From contig NZ_CP040297.1 of NCBI RefSeq assembly GCF_013393945.1, positions 5,651,296-5,683,295 of the forward strand: a DNA stretch of 32,000 nt, written 5' to 3'. Positions within the stretch are counted from its first letter, which is position 1. Every line of letters starts with the position of its first letter. The DNA is from Nostoc sp. TCL26-01. Lineage in GTDB: Bacteria; Cyanobacteriota; Cyanobacteriia; Cyanobacteriales; Nostocaceae. Under the pieces are notes generated by a model that worked only from the letters and a program-made list of their open reading frames with translations, searched no databases and was not told the DNA's origin. The translations under genes and the position numbers were made by a program. Shown here in pieces: positions 3,745 to 22,024 of the stretch.

Positions 3745-4611
3745 ATGAGCTTAAATAATCAGGTTCTAGACAGACCCATTTCTCAAGAACTGCCATATGT
3801 AGAGGCTGAACTTAGTTACCTGGTTCCGATGGTAGAAAGACCTGTCAACTATACCTACGAACCGCCAGCCGGGATTCCGCGTACAAATGGCACTTTTCAA
3901 CCCTACAAAGTGCCTATCTATAATGCTCGTTCTCTTTTTAAAAACATCTCCTTAGACAAGGAAGGCTTTGCATTTACTGAACATCACACCAGTGTCAGCA
4001 ACTTTTACGACGACGAAGAAGTGCGCCGAGTTTATTATCCAGAAGCCGAGCAATTGTTAAAAGAGGTGACAGGCGGAACTAAGGTAGTAGTATTCGATCA
4101 TACCCTGCGTAATGCTGGTAAATCCAAGCCTGGTGAGAATAATATTAAAGAACCTGCCAAGCGCGTACACAACGACTTCACTGCCAAATCTGGCTATACT
4201 CGCGCCCGTTTGGAACTAGCTGCACGGGAGGTAGATGATAACGAAATTGAGTTACTATTGCAACAACGATTTGCCATTATTAATGTTTGGCGAGCGATCG
4301 CTAAACCAATCCAAGAATCACCATTAGCCTTGTGTGACGCGCAAAGTATTGCACCCACAGACCTTGTAGCTGGAGATTTAGTATACCGCGATCGCGTTGG
4401 CGAAACCTACGCAGTTACGTATAATCCCAAGCATCAATGGTATTACTTTCCACAAATGCACCCAGACGAAGCACTATTTATCAAATGTTTCGACTCCGCA
4501 GCAGATGGACGCGCCCGTTTTGCCGCCCACACAGCGTTTGAAGACCCCACTAGCCCAGCAGACGCACCCCCAAGAGAAAGTATCGAACTCAGAACCTTTG
4601 TCTTTTACTGA
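3745..4611 (+). CDS. CmcJ/NvfI-family oxidoreductase-like protein
   Basis: 288-aa ORF starting 12 nt after the GST stop. The segments VFDHTLRN, RVHNDFT, FAIINVWRAI and PLALCD recall the CmcJ/NvfI (AsaB-like) hydroxylase family. The assignment is from memory of family motifs only. Confidence 0.55.
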   Translation: MSLNNQVLDRPISQELPYVEAELSYLVPMVERPVNYTYEPPAGIPRTNGTFQPYKVPIYNARSLFKNISLDKEGFAFTEHHTSVSNFYDDEEVRRVYYPEAEQLLKEVTGGTKVVVFDHTLRNAGKSKPGENNIKEPAKRVHNDFTAKSGYTRARLELAAREVDDNEIELLLQQRFAIINVWRAIAKPIQESPLALCDAQSIAPTDLVAGDLVYRDRVGETYAVTYNPKHQWYYFPQMHPDEALFIKCFDSAADGRARFAAHTAFEDPTSPADAPPRESIELRTFVFY

Positions 4612-13920: not shown

Positions 13921-14167
13921 ATTTGTGCTTTGTATGCAGATGTTCATCAGAAACAAAATATCAAAATGACAGGTCTAGGTATGTAATTCGTTATTCTTGA
14001 TTTTTAGTTTGGCTATTGTAGGCTTACACCTACGTAGTAAGGCAAATTCAATACTTATATCAAAAATTAGGCTAATCATAGCGTGGAAATTTCTTTTCTC
14101 CATGCTTATTCCCCATTACCCCTTATCCCCAGAGGGGGTCCCGAGTTCCCCATTCCCCATTCCCAAA

Positions 14168-16186
14168 ATGATGCGCGTTCCTGCTGCGACAATTTTCACT
14201 CTAGTTACTTTAGCCGCTAGCAATGCTACTCAACAAGCCATTGCTGCACCTATGACAGCTGCTACTGAGATTCAACCAACGGAGGATTTAGTGATTCCTG
14301 TAGTGGAAGAAACGCCGACACAGGTTACATCTGTGGCATCACCAGAAACATTAGATACTCCACAATTTTCTCATAAATCTACAGTCATCGCCCAATCAAC
14401 TAATTCTCCTGTTGTACTTCCACCTGCTTCTCCTTCTGTGGTTACACCGTCTCCCCAGCCTGCAACTACGACTAACGATTTAGTGGTGACAGCAACAGAT
14501 GTACAGATAGTAGGGGTAACACCAGAATTAGAGCAAATTATTCGCCAAGTTATCCAAACTCAACTCGGTGGGGATACCAGTCAAAGTCAGCTACAAAAAG
14601 ATGTAGCCGCAATTTTGCAGACTGGCTTATTTGTGAGTGCGAATGTGAATAGCCGCACTACTCCATCTGGCTTGAATGTAGTTTATCAGGTGCAACCCGT
14701 GGTTGTGCGATCGCTGCAATTGACTAATGCTCAAGCCCTTACCTATCAAGTCATTCAACCATCTTTCCAGTCTCAAATCGGTCAACCAATTAGTCCTGTG
14801 GGACTCAAGCAAGCCGTAGCACAAGTCAATCAATGGTATGCCGACAACGGTTATAACTTGGCGCGGGTGTTATCAATTCAACCCAACCGTCAGGGAATTC
14901 TTAACATCAATGTGGCTGAAGGTTTGGTGAGTGATATTCAGTTTCGCTTTGTCAATGATGAGGGGAAACCTGTTGAGGGACGGACTAAACCAGAGTTTCT
15001 GCGGCAACAAATCAAACTCCAATCGGGGCAAGTTTTCCGAGAAAATACGGTTAAGCAAGATGTGCAGAAGTTGTATCAGACTGGCTTATTTCAAAGTGTG
15101 AATGTTGCCTTGGCTGGAGATGCGACAAAATTAGATGTGATTTATGAACTCAAGGAGAATGGGGCGCGGGCGATTAACTTGGGTGGTAGTTATAACGGTG
15201 ATGTAGGCTTGGTGGGGACTTTAAATTATCAAGACCAAAATATTGGTGGTAGGAATGATATTTTAGCGGTGAACTTGGGTTTAAGTACTCAAGATTTACA
15301 GTTTGATACTAAATTTATCAGTCCTTATCGTGACACAAATAGCGATCGCTTGGGTTACACTGTCAACACTTTCCGGCGGCGGGAAATTTCTCAAATCTTT
15401 GATGATCAAATTAAACTAGCTGACGGTGATAAAGTCCGGGAAAGTCAAATTGGTGCAGGTATCAGCTTGCAACGTCCCCTTGAAGGTTGGAATACATCTT
15501 TAGGATTTAATTATACTCGTACAAGTATTAGCGATCGCCAAGGCAAAATCACCCCAACTGATGCTCAAGGCAATCCCTTATCATTTAGTGGTACTGGTGT
15601 TGATGACCTGACAACTGTATCCTTCAGTGCCACCAAAGATCAACGCAATAATCCCAACAACCCCACGCAAGGTTCCCTATTGAGTTTGAGTACAGAACAA
15701 TCTGTACCTCTGGGACAAGGTAACATTTCTATGAATCGCCTGAGAGCAAATTACAGTCAATACGTACCAGTCAAATTATTCAGCAGTCAAACACCGCAAG
15801 TATTCGCCTTGAATTTGCAAGCAGGTACAGTCCTCGGTGATTTACCCCCCTACGAAGCCTTTAACTTGGGTGGTGCTAACTCAGTCCGGGGTTACGATGT
15901 CGGCAATGTGGGTAATGGACGTAGTTATGTACTAGCCTCCGCCGAATACCGTTTTCCCATTGTGCCGATAGTTGGGGGTGTACTATTCGCTGACTTTGCC
16001 TCAGACTTAGGTTCCGGTGACACCGTTTTAGGCAACCCGGCTGGTGTCCGTGGTAAATCTGGTACTGGCTTTGGTTACGGTGCAGGTATCCGTGTCAACT
16101 CACCCTTGGGTTTAATCCGCGCTGATTATGGTATTAACGATCAAGGGGAAAGTCGCGTGCATTTAGGAATAGGACAAAAGTTTTGA
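14168..16186 (+). CDS. Omp85/BamA-family outer-membrane protein assembly factor
   Basis: The start is placed at ATGATG (14168), giving a signal-peptide-like MMRVPAATIFTLVTLAASNATQQAIA. A Pro/Thr/Ser-rich linker, POTRA-like repeats and a beta-barrel ending in ...HLGIGQKF (terminal aromatic residue) follow. The 57 codons upstream in the ORF track run through CCCCATT-type repeats. Confidence 0.85.
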   Translation: MMRVPAATIFTLVTLAASNATQQAIAAPMTAATEIQPTEDLVIPVVEETPTQVTSVASPETLDTPQFSHKSTVIAQSTNSPVVLPPASPSVVTPSPQPATTTNDLVVTATDVQIVGVTPELEQIIRQVIQTQLGGDTSQSQLQKDVAAILQTGLFVSANVNSRTTPSGLNVVYQVQPVVVRSLQLTNAQALTYQVIQPSFQSQIGQPISPVGLKQAVAQVNQWYADNGYNLARVLSIQPNRQGILNINVAEGLVSDIQFRFVNDEGKPVEGRTKPEFLRQQIKLQSGQVFRENTVKQDVQKLYQTGLFQSVNVALAGDATKLDVIYELKENGARAINLGGSYNGDVGLVGTLNYQDQNIGGRNDILAVNLGLSTQDLQFDTKFISPYRDTNSDRLGYTVNTFRRREISQIFDDQIKLADGDKVRESQIGAGISLQRPLEGWNTSLGFNYTRTSISDRQGKITPTDAQGNPLSFSGTGVDDLTTVSFSATKDQRNNPNNPTQGSLLSLSTEQSVPLGQGNISMNRLRANYSQYVPVKLFSSQTPQVFALNLQAGTVLGDLPPYEAFNLGGANSVRGYDVGNVGNGRSYVLASAEYRFPIVPIVGGVLFADFASDLGSGDTVLGNPAGVRGKSGTGFGYGAGIRVNSPLGLIRADYGINDQGESRVHLGIGQKF

Positions 16187-16220
16187 GATGTTGATTAGCA
16201 CGGTGTCCAACGTTCTTTCC

Positions 16221-16308
16221 AACCTAACCCCCAGCCCTTTCCCTACAAGGGAAGGGGAGCAAGAATCAAAGCCTCTCTCCCTGTGGGGGAGAGGTTTGGA
16301 GAGGGGTC
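16221..16308. repeat. G/C-rich double-hairpin dispersed element
   Basis: Two imperfect hairpins, CCCTTTCCCT-ACA-AGGGAAGGGG and CCTCTCTCCC-TGTG-GGGGAGAGG, are followed by TTTGGAGAGGGG. A related GGGGAGAGGGAAGAGGGG stretch occurs at 30826-30850. Confidence 0.6.
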
Positions 16309-16372
16309 AACGAATTACGAATTATTTAGATAAACTGGAGAAAATCAGTATAATTGCGCTTTTATTGAGTTT

Positions 16373-16753
16373 ATGTCATTAACTGCTGCGGCGATCGCTA
16401 TCTTAGTCCTGACTAAAGCTTTTGAAAGAACTGGGGAAATCTTGGGCGAAAAGGTTTTAGAGCAAGGTGGTAAATTATTCTCGCTACTGAAACGCAAAGA
16501 ACCTCACACAGCCGCAGCCATTGAACAGGCACAAACACAACCTTTAGATTATGGTGACGCTTATCTCGTGGGACAGGTAGAAGCAGCCGCAAAAAAAGAC
16601 CCAGAAATTGCTCAAGCTATTGCAGCTTTGGCAGATGCGGTAAAATCTCAACCCGCGATTATCCAGAATTTTACCAACACTGTTGATAAAAATTACGGTG
16701 GTAATGTGGGGAACGTTGCTAATGACAACCGCACCCAAAACTTTAATTTCTGA
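16373..16753 (+). CDS. small helical protein with hydrophobic N-terminal helix and N/G/Q-rich C-terminal tail (candidate NLR-associated effector/adaptor)
   Basis: ATG-initiated 126-aa ORF. It has the head MSLTAAAIAILVLTKAF, an Ala/Glu/Lys/Gln-rich helical body and the tail IIQNFTNTVDKNYGGNVGNVANDNRTQNFNF. Its TGA stop (16751-16753) is in frame with the downstream NB-ARC ORF. Confidence 0.7.
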   Translation: MSLTAAAIAILVLTKAFERTGEILGEKVLEQGGKLFSLLKRKEPHTAAAIEQAQTQPLDYGDAYLVGQVEAAAKKDPEIAQAIAALADAVKSQPAIIQNFTNTVDKNYGGNVGNVANDNRTQNFNF

Positions 16754-16858
16754 CTACAGTCGCCTGAATGGGAACAGGTAAAGTCAAATCCCCCTACTGC
16801 AATACCACACAATTTACCCTGGAGTGGGGTAGAGAAATTTGTCGGACGTGAAACTGAA

Positions 16859-18778
16859 TTGCAACAACTCCACCAACTTTTGCAGCAAAATCCTCAAGTA
16901 GCCATCGCCGCTATTGCGGGGATGGGTGGAGTCGGTAAAACAGAACTGGCGCTGCAATATGCCTTGGAAAAACACGAGACTTATCAAGGGGGAATTTGCT
17001 GGTTACTGCCCAAAACCGGAGATATAGCCCTGCAAATTGTCCAGTTTGCCAGAACGCAGCTTGATTTAAAGCCACCAGAAGATTTTGATATCATCGCCCA
17101 AGTACAATACTGCTGGCGACGTTGGCGTGATGGTGATGTGCTGCTAGTGCTGGATGATGTCAGCGACTACGAACAAATCAAGCCTTACCTACAATCTCTA
17201 CCTCCCCGGTTTAAAGTGTTGATGACTACGCGCCAGAACTTAGGACGCATCCCACAGTTATCATTAGATGTACTACAACCAGAAGCCGCACACGAGTTAT
17301 TGCAATCAATTATTGGTAAAGAACGTATTAACCCTGTAGAGACGTTGCACGCAACGTCTCCCCTGTGTGCATGGTTAGGATATTTACCCTTGGGTGTAGA
17401 ATTAGTCGGACGGTATCTAGCACGGAAACAGGATTTATCCTTAACAGAAATGTTGCAACGCTTGGAAAACAAGCGACTAGATGAGCGTTCCCTATCTAAA
17501 TCTAAGTTAGAAGCTGACATGACAGCACAACGAGGTGTGTTAGCCGCCTTTGAGTTAAGTTGGCAAGAATTAGAGGACGACGCTAAACAACTCGGCTGTT
17601 TATTAAGTTTATTTGCCCCCGCACCTGTACCTTGGAACTTGGTAGAACAGTGTTTACCAGAAACAGATGCAGAAGATTTAGAGGAAATTAGAGACGATAG
17701 CTTACTGAATCTGCATTTACTCCAGCGTCAAGGCAAGGAAATCTATCAACTACATCCACTGTTGAGAGAGTTTTTCCAATATAAGCTTACAGGTTTAGAG
17801 CAGGTAGAGGAATTTAAGCGATCGCTCTGCCGACTAATGGTAGCAGTTGCTCAAGATATTCCTGACTCACCCATCCTTGAGCAAATAACCGCCATTTCTC
17901 CTGCCATTCCTCATATAGCTGAAGTAGCGAATCATCTCATTCAATACGTCAGCGATGATGATTTACTCTGGCCTTTCATCGGCAACGTTAAATTTTATAA
18001 TGGTCAAGGATTATATACTCAGGCTGAAACTTGGTCCCACAAGTGTCTAGAAATCACTAAAAAACGTTTGGGAGAAGAACATCTCTCTGTTGCCACTAGC
18101 CTCAACAACTTAGCGTATCTCTACCGTTCCCAAGGCAGATACAGCGAAGCCGAACCGTTGTTCATCCAAGCTTTAGCACTCTCGCGCAAACTTCTGGGAG
18201 AAGAACATCCCGATGTCGCACTTAGCCTCAATAACCTCGCGTCTCTCTACGAGTCCCAAGGCAGATACAGTGAAGCTGAACCGTTGTACATCCAAGCTTT
18301 AGCACTCATGCGCAAACTTCTGGGAGAAGAACATCCCGATGTCGCACTTAGCCTCAACAACCTCGCGTCACTCTACTGTTCCCAAGGCAGATACAGCAAA
18401 GCCGAACCATTGTACATCCAAGCTTTAACACTCATGCGCAAACTTCTGGGAGAAGAACATCCCGATATCGCACTTAGCCTCAACAACTTCGCGTCACTCT
18501 ATTACTCCCAAGGCAGATACAGCAAAGCCGAACCGTTGTACATCCAAGCTTTAGCACTCAGACGCAAACTCCTGGGAGAAGAACATCCCTCTGTCGCCAC
18601 TAGCCTCAACAACCTCGCATATCTCTACCGTTCCCAAGGCAGATACAGCGAAGCCGAACCGTTATACATCCAAGCTTTAGATATTTTGGAGCGACGGTTA
18701 GGAGTAGATCATCCTAATACTGTGACTGTGCGTAATAATCTAGCATATTTGCGCGATCGCCTCACTTCAGAACAGTAA
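16859..18778 (+). CDS. NB-ARC (STAND NTPase) + TPR repeat protein, NLR-like; homology extends upstream to 16754 with no start codon there
   Basis: The ORF has Walker A GMGGVGKT, Walker B LLVLDDV, TTR, and GYLPLGVELVG (the GxP/winged-helix region), then six TPR_10/12-type repeats. The codons at 16754-16858 encode ...IPHNLPWSGVEKFVGRETEL, the conserved pre-P-loop segment, but contain no ATG, GTG or TTG. Confidence 0.85.
   Translation: MQQLHQLLQQNPQVAIAAIAGMGGVGKTELALQYALEKHETYQGGICWLLPKTGDIALQIVQFARTQLDLKPPEDFDIIAQVQYCWRRWRDGDVLLVLDDVSDYEQIKPYLQSLPPRFKVLMTTRQNLGRIPQLSLDVLQPEAAHELLQSIIGKERINPVETLHATSPLCAWLGYLPLGVELVGRYLARKQDLSLTEMLQRLENKRLDERSLSKSKLEADMTAQRGVLAAFELSWQELEDDAKQLGCLLSLFAPAPVPWNLVEQCLPETDAEDLEEIRDDSLLNLHLLQRQGKEIYQLHPLLREFFQYKLTGLEQVEEFKRSLCRLMVAVAQDIPDSPILEQITAISPAIPHIAEVANHLIQYVSDDDLLWPFIGNVKFYNGQGLYTQAETWSHKCLEITKKRLGEEHLSVATSLNNLAYLYRSQGRYSEAEPLFIQALALSRKLLGEEHPDVALSLNNLASLYESQGRYSEAEPLYIQALALMRKLLGEEHPDVALSLNNLASLYCSQGRYSKAEPLYIQALTLMRKLLGEEHPDIALSLNNFASLYYSQGRYSKAEPLYIQALALRRKLLGEEHPSVATSLNNLAYLYRSQGRYSEAEPLYIQALDILERRLGVDHPNTVTVRNNLAYLRDRLTSEQ
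17336..17360. repeat. small palindromic element inserted in frame in the NB-ARC CDS
   Basis: GTAGAGACGTTGCACGCAACGTCTC has a 10-bp stem and is translated as VETLHATS. It belongs to the same element family as 4619-4649 and is flanked by CCCTGT on both sides (17332-17337 and 17361-17366). Confidence 0.8.
18068..18697 (+). repeat. five tandem 126-bp (42-codon) near-identical TPR coding repeats
   Basis: Units start at 18068, 18194, 18320, 18446 and 18572. Each encodes LGEEHPxVAxSLNNLAxLYxSQGRYSxAEPLYIQALxLxRKL. Confidence 0.9.
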
Positions 18779-18805
18779 CAGCAATCTTTAAAACCTAAAC
18801 TTTTA

Positions 18806-18943
18806 TGTTCCCATCTCGAAGCTTCCTGTTTTGAACTCGAAGTTTCCTGTTCCAAACAAAAACATTCCCGTTTTTCACTCAAAGTTTCGTGTTAAAAGTG
18901 AGAACGTTCCTGTTTCAAGCTCGAAGTTCCGAGTTCTGATACC
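18806..18943. repeat. degenerate tandem repeats with 21/42-nt period (core CTCRAAGTTYC-GTT)
   Basis: CTCGAAG/CTCAAAG cores occur at 18815, 18836, 18878 and 18919. The two 42-nt units (18860-18901 and 18902-18943) align throughout. The last unit shares 20 identical nt (CTCGAAGTTCCGAGTTCTGA) with 20165-20184. Confidence 0.8.
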
Positions 18944-19093: not shown

Positions 19094-19186
19094 GGCGGAC
19101 AATACCCAACGAGTAAGCTATATGTATCAGGATTTTTGTGAATTGGTATGAGCTTGAATGATGGTGTTGTAAAGGCGATCGCTCTC

Positions 19187-19293
19187 TCTTTTAACTCGAA
19201 GTTTTGTGTTCGCAGGTAGAATGATGGTGTTGTGAAGGCGATGTCTAACGACAAGCCGCAAGCGTCTACGCCACTGTTCAATTAGAGAATGAT
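19187..19293 (+). repeat. TA-island junction repeat, copy A (long form), ending in a TAGAAT-like -10 hexamer
   Basis: The sequence reads TTTTAACTCGAAGTTTTGTGTTC..GTAGAATGATGGTGTTGTGAAGGCGATGTCTAACGACAAGCCGCAAGCGTCTACGCC..TTCAATTAGAGAATGAT. An extra half copy (GAATGATGGTGTTGTAAAGGCGATCGC) lies at 19155-19181. Confidence 0.8.
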
Positions 19294-19549: not shown

Positions 19550-19768
19550 ATGTTAATTACATACACTGCAAAATATACAAAAACTAATAGCGGATATATG
19601 GGACAACTGATTGAATGGCAAGAGGTCATCACCGAAGGAGAAACCATAGAAGACTGTAGAACTATGTTACAAGACGCAACAAAAGAAATGATTCTTGCTT
19701 ATCGTCAGCAAAATAAAGAAATTCCTACGGGTAATTCTCTACTTGAACAAATTCCTATAGAGGTTTGA
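19550..19768 (+). CDS. hicB: HicB-family antitoxin
   Basis: 72-aa ORF. Its sequence (YTAKYTKTNSGYMGQLIEWQEVITEGETIEDCRTMLQDA...) is typical of short HicB antitoxins. It overlaps the following hicA-like ORF by 4 nt. Confidence 0.75.
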   Translation: MLITYTAKYTKTNSGYMGQLIEWQEVITEGETIEDCRTMLQDATKEMILAYRQQNKEIPTGNSLLEQIPIEV

Positions 19769-20121
19769 GTGTGTCAGTCAAGCGAAAAGATTTAATTAAG
19801 TACTTAGAAAATAATGGATTTTATTTGTTAAGAGAAGGCGGCAATCATTCCATCTATACTAATGACATAAAAACTATCCCTGTAAAAAGACATCGCACTA
19901 AAGATACCTTAGAATCGCTCAAAAAAATAGCAGATAGTCGAGATATGTCTTGTGAGGCATTACTTAAATTTTATATTGGGCAAGGTTTACGCCAAGATAT
20001 AGCTCAGTTATTTTCTAACCGCGTACTAGAGGCTACTGCTCAAGTTCTGGCACGACATATTCAATCAGAAGCAGAAATTTCACATATCTTACAAGAAATT
20101 CGCTCCCAAACTAATTGTTAA
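19765..20121 (+). CDS. hicA: chimeric ORF: HicA toxin N-terminal part fused to the C-terminal part of a CopG/BrnA-like antitoxin
   Basis: Residues 6-44 (KRKDLIKYLENNGFYLLREGGNHSIYTNDIKTIPVKRHR) match the HicA core. The remaining roughly 74 residues (LESLKKIADSRDMSCEALLKFYIGQGLRQD...) look like an RHH/BrnA-type antitoxin tail rather than the short HicA C-terminus. Confidence 0.6.
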   Translation: MSVSVKRKDLIKYLENNGFYLLREGGNHSIYTNDIKTIPVKRHRTKDTLESLKKIADSRDMSCEALLKFYIGQGLRQDIAQLFSNRVLEATAQVLARHIQSEAEISHILQEIRSQTNC

Positions 20122-20158
20122 TGCGTAGGGGGAGCATCGTCGTAGACATCGCTTTACC

Positions 20159-20237
20159 TTTTGACTCGAAGTTCCGAGTTCTGAGGTGGAATAATGGTGT
20201 TGTGAAGGCGATTTCTCCACTTAAATTGTAGAATGAT
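20159..20237 (+). repeat. TA-island junction repeat, copy B (short form), ending in TTAAATTGTAGAATGAT
   Basis: The sequence reads TTTTGACTCGAAGTTCCGAGTTCTGAGGTGGAATAATGGTGTTGTGAAGGCGAT..TTAAATTGTAGAATGAT. The last 17 nt are identical to 21249-21265. Confidence 0.8.
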
Positions 20238-20327
20238 GAGCATAGGCGGAGCATCACCATAGGCGATCGCCTTGGTAAGAGTTTGGATTGCACGCTTGTT
20301 TTGCAAGAAAGTTTGACAAATAGCTAT

Positions 20328-20768
20328 ATGACCAGGGTTTATCTAGATACCAGTATTTACAATCGTCCATTTGATGACCAAACACAACCAAAAATATTTC
20401 TGGAAACACAAGCTATCATCTTAATTTTACAAATGATAGAAGTAAGATTAATAGAATTAGTTAATTCTTCAGTTCTAGAATATGAAAATAGCCGTAACCC
20501 TTTTGTTGTCAATCAGCAATCAATGGAGCGATACTTACAAATAGCGACATTGAGAGTATTAGTAGATGAAAATATTAAAAACAGAGCAGAACAACTAGAA
20601 CAACAAGGCATTAAATCTATTGATGCACTTCATGTAGCGTGTGCCGAAGCTTCTCAAAGTGATTATCTTATCACTTGTGATAGGAGACTAATCAACCGAT
20701 GTCAGAATTTATCACTCACAGTTATCAACCCAAATAATTTTATTTTTGAGGTAGAAAATGGAAATTAA
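20328..20768 (+). CDS. PIN-domain toxin (VapC-like)
   Basis: The start is placed at ATG 20328 (MTRVYLDTSIY..., with the first acidic PIN residue). Later motifs are IDALHVACAE and DYLITCDRRL. The ORF track's upstream TTG start runs into the repeat. Confidence 0.75.
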   Translation: MTRVYLDTSIYNRPFDDQTQPKIFLETQAIILILQMIEVRLIELVNSSVLEYENSRNPFVVNQQSMERYLQIATLRVLVDENIKNRAEQLEQQGIKSIDALHVACAEASQSDYLITCDRRLINRCQNLSLTVINPNNFIFEVENGN

Positions 20769-20985
20769 AGTTATTAATGAACAAGAAAATTTACAAGAAG
20801 TAATGCAAATTTTACTTACTCACTTAGAACCATCGAAGGTAATGAAATTTTGGGCAGCTTGTAAACTAAGTGAAGGGGACTATTTGCAAGTGAAAGAAAA
20901 ACTTTTTGCTCAAGAAACAGTTGCTAGTTTATATACCAAAATCAAAGAATATCAAGATGATGATGGTAAAAAATCGCCAGAATAA
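20758..20985 (+). CDS. small protein, probable cognate antitoxin of the upstream PIN toxin
   Basis: 75-aa ORF overlapping the PIN gene stop by 11 nt, which suggests translational coupling. Its function is inferred from position only. Confidence 0.5.
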   Translation: MEIKVINEQENLQEVMQILLTHLEPSKVMKFWAACKLSEGDYLQVKEKLFAQETVASLYTKIKEYQDDDGKKSPE

Positions 20986-21102
20986 AGCTTCTAAGCCAAG
21001 CTGCCGTTGATGGGTGATGTTATTCAAGCTTTTGTTTTACCTAAGATTAATTATTTTACTACAGCGATGTCTGACGACAAGCCGCAAGCGTCTACGCTCG
21101 AC

Positions 21103-21265
21103 TTTTTTACTCGGAGTTTTGTGTTCTCAAGTAAAATGATTGTGTTATGAAAGCGGTGTTTAACGACAAGCCCTTCGGGTTCAGGGGTTCAGACTCGACG
21201 GGAACCGCCAAGACTCTGACCCCTTCACCACAAGCGTCTACGCTCCTGTTAAATTGTAGAATGAT
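21103..21265 (+). repeat. TA-island junction repeat, copy C (long form with a 58-nt nested insertion)
   Basis: It has the same order of blocks as copy A. The GTGTTTAACGACAAGCC / CAAGCGTCTACGC block is split by 21173-21230. The copy ends in TTAAATTGTAGAATGAT (21249-21265). A further free copy of the 33-nt block lies at 21066-21098. Confidence 0.8.
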
Positions 21266-21297
21266 CCTCCCCACAATGAGTTAGTGGAAATTTACCG

Positions 21298-21534
21298 ATG
21301 AATAAAGAATTAACGCAAGCGATCGCCTCTGAAATTCAGTTATTTCAGAATATTGAACAGAAAGAAAACTTTCTATTTTTACTTGGTGCTTTAATTGCTA
21401 AAGTAATTAGTTTGAAAAAAGCTGCGGAAGTTATGCAGTTAGAACCAACAGAATTACTTAAAATTCTAGACTTAATGGGAGTTGAGTTTTCGTATCTCTG
21501 TGAAGAAGATGTTGCTTTAGAAAAAAGCTGGTGA
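21298..21534 (+). CDS. UPF0175-family antitoxin-like protein
   Basis: 78-aa ORF. The pattern ...LGALIAKVISLKKAAEVMQLEPTELLKILDLMGVEF... is typical of UPF0175 partners of DUF3368 PIN-like proteins. It lies 4 nt upstream of the next ORF. Confidence 0.7.
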   Translation: MNKELTQAIASEIQLFQNIEQKENFLFLLGALIAKVISLKKAAEVMQLEPTELLKILDLMGVEFSYLCEEDVALEKSW

Positions 21535-21538
21535 ATGA

Positions 21539-22024
21539 ATGCAGATTGTTATTAATTCATCGCCACTGATTTTCCTATCAAAATTAAACTATTTGAATCT
21601 GTTTGTTGAATCTCCTGATGATTTCTACATTCCTCAATCTGTAGCGGATGAAATCAAAGCTAAATCAGATCCATCTAGCCAAACTGTTCAAGCTTTGATT
21701 AACTTTGGTAGTCTTCAAGTCCGAGCATCCAAGTTAATAACCCTTGTCAATAGTTTAAATCAACGCTTGGGCAAAGGCAAATCAGAAGCTATTGCTTTGG
21801 CAATTGAGTTAAACACAGATTGTGTCTTGTTAGATGACTCAACAGCCAGAAGAGAAGCCAGAAGACTCGGTTTAAATATCAAAGGTACGTTAGCTGTTAT
21901 CAAGAAATTGAGCAAAGATGGCAAAATCAGCATTGAAAGCTTGGATGAGCTTTATCAACAACTCATGCAAATTGAGTTTAGAGTTAAAAGGTCTTTGTTT
22001 GATAATATTTTTTCTGAAGATTAA
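21539..22024 (+). CDS. DUF3368 / PIN-like nuclease-domain protein (toxin candidate)
   Basis: 161-aa ORF. IVINSSPLIFLSKL, GKGKSEAIALAIE, VLLDDSTARREARRLGL and IKGTLAVI are hallmark segments of the DUF3368 family. Confidence 0.75.
   Translation: MQIVINSSPLIFLSKLNYLNLFVESPDDFYIPQSVADEIKAKSDPSSQTVQALINFGSLQVRASKLITLVNSLNQRLGKGKSEAIALAIELNTDCVLLDDSTARREARRLGLNIKGTLAVIKKLSKDGKISIESLDELYQQLMQIEFRVKRSLFDNIFSED

Follow-up and report, generated by a model that had tools for sequence, protein, structure and literature searches.

The window analysed here is a 32,000-nucleotide stretch of the Nostoc sp. TCL26-01 genome (NZ_CP040297.1, positions 5,651,296-5,683,295 of the forward strand), and all coordinates follow window numbering. 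It carries a gene for a small Bell-type effector followed directly, on the same strand, by an NB-ARC/TPR gene of the NLR type. The small protein is 100% identical to WP_179050551.1, which matches Nostoc sp. TCL26-01 as the source. A single TGA at 16751-16753 is all that separates the two open reading frames (ORFs), which lie in the same frame. Based on the comparison of this junction with related loci, we consider it probable that the pair represents an immune module, composed of a Bell/BASS-type effector (BASS being a short amyloid signalling motif) and an NLR, which is expressed through programmed UGA read-through. The coding features are as follows.

16373-16750, plus strand: ORF of the Bell-type small effector, 126 amino acids, WP_179050551.1, from the ORF list and its translation; start ATG at 16373, stop TGA at 16751-16753.
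16658-16750, plus strand: BASS-like, N/G/Q-rich tail of the effector (residues ~96-126), IIQNFTNTVDKNYGGNVGNVANDNRTQNFNF, read from the sequence.
16751-16756, plus strand: putative recoding site UGA-CUA; 64 in-frame loci and 33 metagenome loci have TGA here.
16754-16858, plus strand: 35 sense codons without ATG, GTG or TTG, LQSPEWEQVKSNPPTAIPHNLPWSGVEKFVGRETE, comprising a linker and the beginning of the NB-ARC module.
16850-17506, plus strand: NB-ARC NTPase domain (Pfam PF00931, 9e-16), residues 33-251 past the stop.
16919-16942, plus strand: Walker A motif GMGGVGKT, from the sequence.
17990-18775, plus strand: TPR sensor array (Pfam TPR_12 7e-105, TPR_10 1e-81), with five 126-nt units (repeat family D1, 18005-18806).

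Past the TGA, the effector frame stays open for 674 codons and closes with a stop at 18776-18778. A sequence-only reading of this DNA had placed both ORFs in one frame on either side of this TGA and had remarked on the 35 start-less codons behind it. ORF and translation analysis confirmed both observations, the earliest ATG, GTG or TTG past the TGA in the window being TTG 16859 (codon 36). No terminator-like site was found between the effector ORF and the NB-ARC/TPR ORF. The downstream protein has the NLR/STAND organization of an NB-ARC domain with Walker A followed by a C-terminal repeat sensor, and its internally conserved TPR array, with 126-nt units 64-82% identical at the DNA level, resembles the repeat arrays of fungal NLRs. 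A collinear NLR-type gene directly downstream of the effector likewise occurs at about 50 homologous loci.

The arrangement was followed in 80 loci from contigs representing one genome per species, which were analysed by script and of which 76 had an intact small ORF. The small ORF ends in TGA and continues in frame into a long ORF in 64 of these 76; two more end in TGA without continuation, one in an unrelated context and the other (L068) with the joint followed by early stops, apparently a decayed copy. The ten others end in TAA or TAG and none of them is in frame with its NLR. In-frame continuation was found in 64/66 TGA loci versus 0/10 TAA/TAG loci (Fisher p = 7e-11, a value that ignores relatedness and overstates independence, many loci being paralogues or close relatives). 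About 16 cyanobacterial genera are represented among the homologous loci, including Nostoc, Komarekiella, Aulosira, Calothrix, Amazonocrinis, Dendronalium, Tolypothrix, Scytonema, Potamolinea, Aerosakkonema, Floridaenema, Microcoleus, Microseira, Coleofasciculus and Waterburya. The ortholog in Nostoc sp. ATCC 53789 (83% identity) has the same layout, with ...NQTFNF, TGA, CTA CAG... and the NLR in frame. Where the partner ORF is complete (53 loci), the stop at the junction is always TGA (53/53) and almost always TGAC (52/53), while the partners' own stops are TAA (27), TAG (14) and TGA (12). Seven spacings between TGA and Walker A occur (147, 150, 153, 156, 159, 162 and 168 nt), all of which are multiples of 3. 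A single in-frame stop with an open frame behind it is conserved, in other words, over divergent relatives.

Seen in one genome alone, a single in-frame stop would suggest that an all-in-one effector-NLR gene has recently acquired a nonsense mutation or become a pseudogene, or that the sequence is in error, and a fresh nonsense mutation was one of two possibilities raised in the sequence-only reading. The homologous loci refute it, and this explanation can be given practically no credence: the stop is kept as TGA in about 100 loci, none of which (64 in-frame and 33 metagenome loci) has a sense codon such as TGG at the junction; partner ORFs are intact over hundreds of codons; and all 92 homologues of the small protein retrieved from 5.8 billion proteins are free-standing (102-209 amino acids), with none fused. 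A chimeric query composed of the effector, W and the NLR N-terminus also recovered no sense-codon fusion with this joint, and the distant continuous relative P0213 (38% identity) is without it. Besides L068, two possible decayed joints were seen: the ENA metagenome protein P0139, in which an apparent 1-nt indel shifts the TGA out of frame, and L100, in which TGA CTG TAG places a second stop behind the first.

The nucleotides that follow the stop are kept beyond coding needs. The base after the TGA in the window is C, as the sequence-only reading had stated, and UGA-C is the weakest termination context in E. coli. UGA is the most read-through-prone bacterial stop, and the efficiency of release factor 2 (RF2) depends on the +4 base (PMC5289835). 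In the 64 in-frame loci, the codon after the stop is CTA (55), CTG (5), CTC (2), ATA (1) or CCA (1). Post-stop leucine is encoded by CTN in 62/62 cases, against a background in the same ORFs of 53% CTN and 9.9% CTA among leucine codons. The consensus after the stop is CUR-NAG, and the codon preceding the stop is not conserved. Over the first ~20 codons past the stop, third positions are nearly invariant and changes fall at first and second positions; from codon 21 on, the usual third-position variability is found. This ~20-codon conservation does not look like coding conservation. An overlapping ORF as its source was ruled out, as no ORF of at least 40 amino acids in another frame or on the other strand overlaps 16751-16800. 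Frameshifting by -1 or +1 was also considered and rejected, given that there is no slippery heptamer, that the pre-stop codon varies and that the partner is in frame 0.

The same nucleotides contain a conserved RNA structure, for which the T of TGA is numbered as position 1. Its elements in the window are given below.

16754-16761, plus strand: 8-nt spacer, CUACAGUC, from the stop to stem 1; the spacing is constant in every motif-bearing locus.
16762-16779, plus strand: pseudoknot stem 1, GCCUG (16762-16766) with CAGGU (16775-16779), loop AAUGGGAA; RNAalifold, -5.9 kcal/mol.
16770-16792, plus strand: pseudoknot stem 2, GGGA (16770-16773, in the stem 1 loop) with UCCC (16789-16792); -5.2 kcal/mol as a duplex.
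16780-16788, plus strand: A-rich third loop of the pseudoknot, 9 nt.

RNAalifold proposed a 5-bp hairpin starting 8 nt past the UGA, and inspection then suggested a compact H-type pseudoknot, with the consensus G12-C-C-Y-G16 pairing with C25-R-G-G-U29 in stem 1 and N20-G-G-A23, inside the stem 1 loop, pairing with U39-C-C-N42 in stem 2. Across 52 loci, 98.4% of cells are paired and 4/9 pairs show compensatory changes; the covariation score was reached by 0/500 shuffles, and slid partners were at most 51% paired. The stem 1 helix itself is 99.6% paired in these loci, a fraction inflated by the derivation of the structure from the same sequences that were counted. At pair 15-26, the 52 loci have CG (24), UG (14), UA (11) and GC (1), and the 76 distinct sequences have C-G (44), U-G (17), U-A (14) and G-C (1), with no C-A in either set; in L021, three pairs of stem 1 are compensated together (GUCGG with CCGAC). 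In stem 2, pair 20-42 occurs as GC (37), CG (4), GU (4) and AU (2). This stem was re-tested in independent metagenome loci found by a pattern that left positions 20 and 42 free, where it was 89% paired and 1/500 shuffles reached the covariation score. Compensatory covariation is strong for stem 1 and support for stem 2 is moderate; a covariation-supported structure lies a few nucleotides downstream of the stop. The structure is apparent from comparison only and not from single-sequence folding, and an Rfam search of 16300-17000 with E up to 10 returned no relevant family. With the stop in the A site, a spacer of 8 nt puts such a structure at the mRNA entry channel, a geometry known from retroviral read-through and -1 frameshift signals.

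A UGA with a conserved RNA structure a short distance downstream also recalls selenocysteine (Sec) recoding, in which the UGA would be decoded as Sec under the direction of a hairpin resembling the bacterial selenocysteine insertion sequence (SECIS). No Rfam or SECIS match was obtained at E up to 10, the loop of the hairpin itself pairs to form a pseudoknot, and Sec has no evident use at the linker position; we regard this possibility as extremely improbable. The Sec trait has not been detected in Cyanobacteria (PMC1794560).

The joint extends well beyond the Bell family of the window. Metagenome contigs were scanned with the pseudoknot motif, TGA not being required, and of 36 matches (3 by chance) 33 were genuine. 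In all 33, TGA lies at an unchanged distance and the next codon is CTR, or ATC in a single case. The upstream ORFs include further Bell subfamilies and, in six matches (L087, L092, L094, L098, L103 and L109), an alpha/beta-hydrolase (DUF676/PGAP1-like), whose joints lead into NACHT-type NTPases; the hydrolase of L103 has a BASS9-like tail. The partners, which share no homology among themselves, always continue the frame and stay open for 124-1201 codons. They represent at least eight architectures, comprising nSTAND1 with WD40, nSTAND3/5, NACHT, divergent NB-ARC, NB-ARC with DUF7779 and a phycobilisome-like domain, small proteins without a family assignment, and two kinds of membrane protein, one with a PsbP-like domain and the other with a Pro/Ser-rich region. 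Plasmids carry the joint as well, namely the conjugative plasmid pREB5 (1075-3500; L119) of the unicellular Acaryochloris marina MBIC11017 and a plasmid of Nostoc sp. UHCC 0870. Because the same joint is found with varied effectors and partners and on plasmids, it appears to behave as a portable cassette between effector and partner. Absent from the sequence-only reading were the conserved pseudoknot, the wide spread of the joint, and its use with effectors other than Bell and partners other than NB-ARC. One unusual sensor was noted among the partners (L101:4669-6654, minus strand), an NB-ARC protein in which a C-terminal phycobilisome-protein (globin-like) domain replaces TPR or WD40 (Pfam PF00502, 1.9e-36).

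This portability raises the question of whether the conserved ~45 nt is mainly a DNA recombination joint for shuffling effector and sensor cassettes, with the TGA a normal stop carried along. Such a role would agree with the linkage of Bell subfamilies or alpha/beta-hydrolases to NB-ARC, NACHT, nSTAND and membrane partners through one joint, with its presence on conjugative and other plasmids, and with variation inside the ~45 nt that is dimorphic and mosaic. The compensatory changes (C-G to U-A without C-A, G-C to C-G, and the triple change in L021) point instead to selection on an RNA helix, and a recombination joint gives no reason why the partner must be in frame, which makes it a very unlikely explanation for the conservation. 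Cassette shuffling may nevertheless add to read-through rather than replace it.

The small protein resembles a Bell effector in its helical domain. Its description in the sequence-only reading, a hydrophobic first helix, a helical body and an N/G/Q-rich tail, holds for both the sequence and an AlphaFold2 model, which comprises six helices and a disordered tail (predicted local distance difference test score, pLDDT, 67). Helix H1 (residues 3-15, MSLTAAAIAILVLTKAF) is hydrophobic, and in the model it opens an alpha-helical domain of ~100 residues. The N-terminus is conserved over 40 homologues, and the window copy has a 94%-identical paralogue. The composition and C-terminal position of the tail fit a ~25-residue G/N/Q-rich motif. 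Among the loci analysed, the tail type of the window was seen in TGA-type loci only, and neither it nor the string NYGGN occurs in the paired-motif table of Dyrka et al. 2020. Profile searches of the 126-residue protein, which had been proposed as a check, brought no curated assignment: Pfam gave a sub-threshold GST_C_8 match only, NCBIfam and PADLOC models gave none, Foldseek with the model against the PDB found nothing below E = 1, and a PDB sequence profile search returned designed coiled coils only and nothing relevant. The tails of homologues at 55-65% identity match the BASS7 or BASS5 motifs that Dyrka et al. 2020 list in their Table S2. Because these sister tails are BASS5 and BASS7 motifs, the family can operationally be treated as a Bell/BASS family, although no curated model or solved fold matches it. 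The proposed Bell/BASS analogy draws support from these tails and from the motif-matched pairs among the TAA/TAG loci.

Each of these ten TAA/TAG loci is a classical two-gene Bell/BASS-NLR pair: the NLR is encoded in a different frame from an ATG of its own, and its N-terminus repeats the effector tail motif (L020, L022, L060 and L061). The tails belong to the BASS5 and BASS7 types in Table S2 of Dyrka et al. 2020. Two examples are shown.

L020: effector tail KLAEKIGIVVQGGTVNIEKLSL; NLR N-terminus MAEKIGVVNYGKTNIGTLIVG.
L061: effector tail TTIENWKGINIKGGNSTINNPNFNF; NLR N-terminus MTTENWNGINIKGGNPVINISQSERAKLNPP...FVGR.

In the window, the stretch from the TGA to the NB-ARC domain contains neither an NLR-side motif copy nor a start codon. 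Its linker, LQSPEGERVKLNPP, is homologous to SQSERAKLNPP, the linker behind the NLR-side BASS of the two-gene locus L061, so that a read-through product would bear the effector's own motif precisely where the two-gene relatives have the NLR-side copy. The post-TGA linker also resembles linkers within continuous all-in-one NLRs, for example P0156. The motif on the NLR that is typical of Bell/BASS pairs would exist in the window only if read-through occurs; without it, TGA-type sensors, as far as their sequences tell, have no motif.

The sensor is similarly poor in start codons. None of the NB-ARC loci has ATG, GTG or TTG within the first ~17 codons after the stop, the TTG at codon 21 is replaced by TTA in 15/39 loci, window included, and L067 has no start codon before Walker A. 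Later candidates are ordinary leucine or valine codons that are not conserved between loci. Gene callers start these NLRs at an available codon, such as the TTG giving 'MPLSGV...' in P0108 and P0109; the RefSeq start for the Acaryochloris NLR is ATT, 17 codons past the TGA, and the NCBI label is often "partial". Termination followed by reinitiation was tried and rejected, as CUA is no start codon, the CTG overlapping the stop belongs to a different frame, and 11/39 loci have ACA in place of ATA at codon 17.

Annotated in this way, the locus would be an ordinary two-gene operon, in which UGA terminates fully, a motif-less NLR starts internally at TTG, GTG or a non-canonical codon (TTG 16859 in the window), and the RNA element serves mRNA processing or stability, pausing or coupling. 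The annotations of gene callers and RefSeq, the candidate TTG and GTG codons present in most loci and the 12 TGA loci that are without the pseudoknot are all in line with such an operon. We nonetheless hold it to be unlikely, since it leaves unexplained the common frame at 64/66 TGA loci, which differ in spacing (seven classes) and in partner (at least eight unrelated types), as well as the constant TGA-C at the junction while the partners' own stops vary. Its start candidates are moreover the non-conserved codons described above, and its sensor would be without the motif that all two-gene relatives have.

Under programmed read-through, one mRNA would be translated from ATG 16373. UGA 16751 would terminate most ribosomes and give the free 126-residue effector with its amyloid-prone N/G/Q tail, while a minority would insert an amino acid, most likely Trp, and enter NB-ARC/TPR. 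The weak UGA-C context (CUR-NAG) and the pseudoknot 8 nt downstream, positioned at the mRNA entry channel with UGA in the A site, may both help read-through. The predicted products are the following.

16373-18778, plus strand: predicted read-through product, 801 amino acids, in the order Bell, BASS, X (probably Trp), linker, NB-ARC and TPR, based on the frame, conservation and comparison with two-gene loci.
Predicted junction-spanning peptide of the read-through product: TQNFNFWLQSPEWEQVK.

In this fusion, the amyloid motif of the effector would occupy the place of the NLR-side copy of the two-gene relatives. Ligand-driven oligomerization of the rare fusion could then nucleate the amyloid fold and, as in two-gene systems, template the abundant free effector, which in turn may damage the membrane and kill the cell. 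Where the effector has no amyloid motif, the same device would supply a free effector and an all-in-one NLR in a fixed ratio. On balance we favour, somewhat more cautiously, a general form of this proposal, in which a portable recoding cassette of filamentous and some other cyanobacteria (UGA-CUR-NAG, 8-nt spacer, compact H-type pseudoknot) would drive bacterial read-through, NLR loci would make free effector and fusion in a fixed ratio, and one amyloid motif would act as both sender and receiver. That read-through might yield a free effector and a rare effector-sensor fusion was the second possibility raised in the sequence-only reading, and the comparative evidence strongly supports it.

Several points weigh against programmed read-through. 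The case for it is comparative. From codon 18-27 on (TTG at codon 36 in the window), in-frame TTG or GTG sense codons occur in most loci, and a motif-less NLR might be initiated independently, perhaps alongside read-through. Besides the inflated pairing of stem 1 and the relatedness of many loci mentioned above, stem 2 has just 4 bp with one covarying pair, and the window hairpin alone is not unusually stable (single-sequence folding, z = 0.31). Twelve in-frame TGA loci are without the pseudoknot, which is therefore not indispensable for the arrangement. Five of these are L048, L049, L056, L057 and L059; the others form the L025 group (L025, L027, L029, L032, L036, L040 and L045; ~4364-4470), in which a 9-nt deletion removes the 3' arm of stem 1. 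Despite this deletion, the group keeps TGA-CTA and the frame, and RNAalifold proposes an alternative hairpin 5 nt past the stop, without covariation. Lastly, the alpha/beta-hydrolase effectors of L087 and L092 have no recognisable amyloid tail, and amyloid templating therefore cannot be the universal rationale.

The arrangement combines a known immune module with a recoding logic known from viruses. Read-through at the gag-pol junction of murine leukaemia virus (MuLV), a retrovirus, uses UAG, an 8-nt spacer and a pseudoknot, and luteovirus-type pseudoknots are compact and H-type. The joint described here shares with these signals an in-frame stop with conserved 3' context, the 8-nt spacer, a small H-type pseudoknot with an A-rich third loop and a predicted outcome of one major short and one minor extended product. 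It differs in belonging to a bacterial immune gene on chromosomes or plasmids, in presenting UGA to RF2 rather than a stop to eukaryotic release factor 1 (eRF1), and in having stems of 5 and 4 bp. In phage Q-beta, a leaky UGA read by near-cognate tRNA-Trp extends the coat protein to A1, a minor protein that is functionally required. The bacterial ribosome, the UGA, near-cognate tRNA-Trp and a minor extended protein would be common to both systems, the last two being predictions for the joint. We know of no downstream pseudoknot in Q-beta, whereas the present case concerns a cellular gene family with a conserved RNA element. Programmed stop-codon read-through is, to our knowledge, well known in viruses and very rare in bacterial cellular genes, and we know of no case of a conserved downstream pseudoknot at a bacterial cellular read-through site.

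Among immune systems, the nearest known are the two-gene Bell/BASS-NLR pairs of filamentous bacteria (Dyrka et al. 2020, bioRxiv 10.1101/2020.01.06.895854), with which Bab/Agp in E. coli (bioRxiv 10.1101/2024.11.07.622273) can be grouped. Common to the pairs and the window are the ~100-residue helical effector with its hydrophobic first helix and a G/N/Q-rich C-terminus, which in the window fits the ~25-residue motif by composition and position, and the collinear NB-ARC/TPR gene directly downstream; the sister loci with BASS5 and BASS7 are truly motif-matched. Unlike in those pairs, the window sensor has neither a start nor a motif copy of its own and lies in frame behind a UGA and a pseudoknot, and in TGA loci one motif copy would serve both proteins. 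All-in-one NLRs of fungi and bacteria, built of effector, NOD and repeats, have the same order as the predicted product (effector, NB-ARC, TPR), but the conserved stop would here make the fusion a minor product and release free effector. The screen of Dyrka et al. 2020 sought matched motifs in separately annotated proteins, needs annotated NLR N-termini, and does not mention stop codons or read-through. Full-text literature searches and later papers of the field yielded no prior description of this read-through arrangement.

If the proposal is true, the joint would represent the first instance, in a family of cellular bacterial genes, of programmed read-through linked to a pseudoknot, and NLR systems would have a third architecture in addition to the two-gene and all-in-one ones. 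Such an arrangement would account for the coupling to a sensor of many Bell-type effectors that seemingly have no motif-bearing NLR partner, and would show how the effector-to-sensor ratio is fixed; a single motif copy would also remove the need for two copies to co-evolve. The joint, if real, would provide a natural and compact read-through signal for bacterial ribosomes that is directly testable by reporters. More generally, annotation pipelines truncate these sensors, call them "partial" or assign ad hoc starts (TTG, ATT), and surveys of NLR amyloid motifs that rely on annotated N-termini would therefore miss this class.

The surroundings of the locus were also inspected. Directly 5' of the effector gene lies a gene for an Omp85/POTRA outer-membrane protein (13997-16186; Pfam Omp85 1e-73). 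The 180-nt gap preceding the effector gene contains G/C-rich palindromes (16190-16300) and the following candidate site.

16325-16354, plus strand: promoter-like site, TTTAGA, 18 nt, TATAAT, just 5' of the effector ATG; a weak candidate from a consensus scan (10/12 matches).

On the 3' side of the NLR, a series of toxin-antitoxin-like pairs occupies 19550-22024. The first consists of a UPF0150/HicB-like protein and HicA, the HicA ORF of 118 amino acids having an additional C-terminal part of ~60 residues; the others combine a PIN protein with a small ORF, and a small ORF with a DUF3368 protein. Comparable HicAB and PIN surroundings are found 3' of the orthologous NLR in Nostoc sp. ATCC 53789 (L001). 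An intergenic element of ~80-140 nt occurs in three copies (19149-19293, 20150-20241 and 21064-21265; also 18809-18936), each of the three just 5' of a toxin-antitoxin-like gene pair, and a 23-nt sub-repeat immediately follows the NLR stop. The element may be a repeat resembling a miniature inverted-repeat transposable element (MITE) or a common regulatory region.

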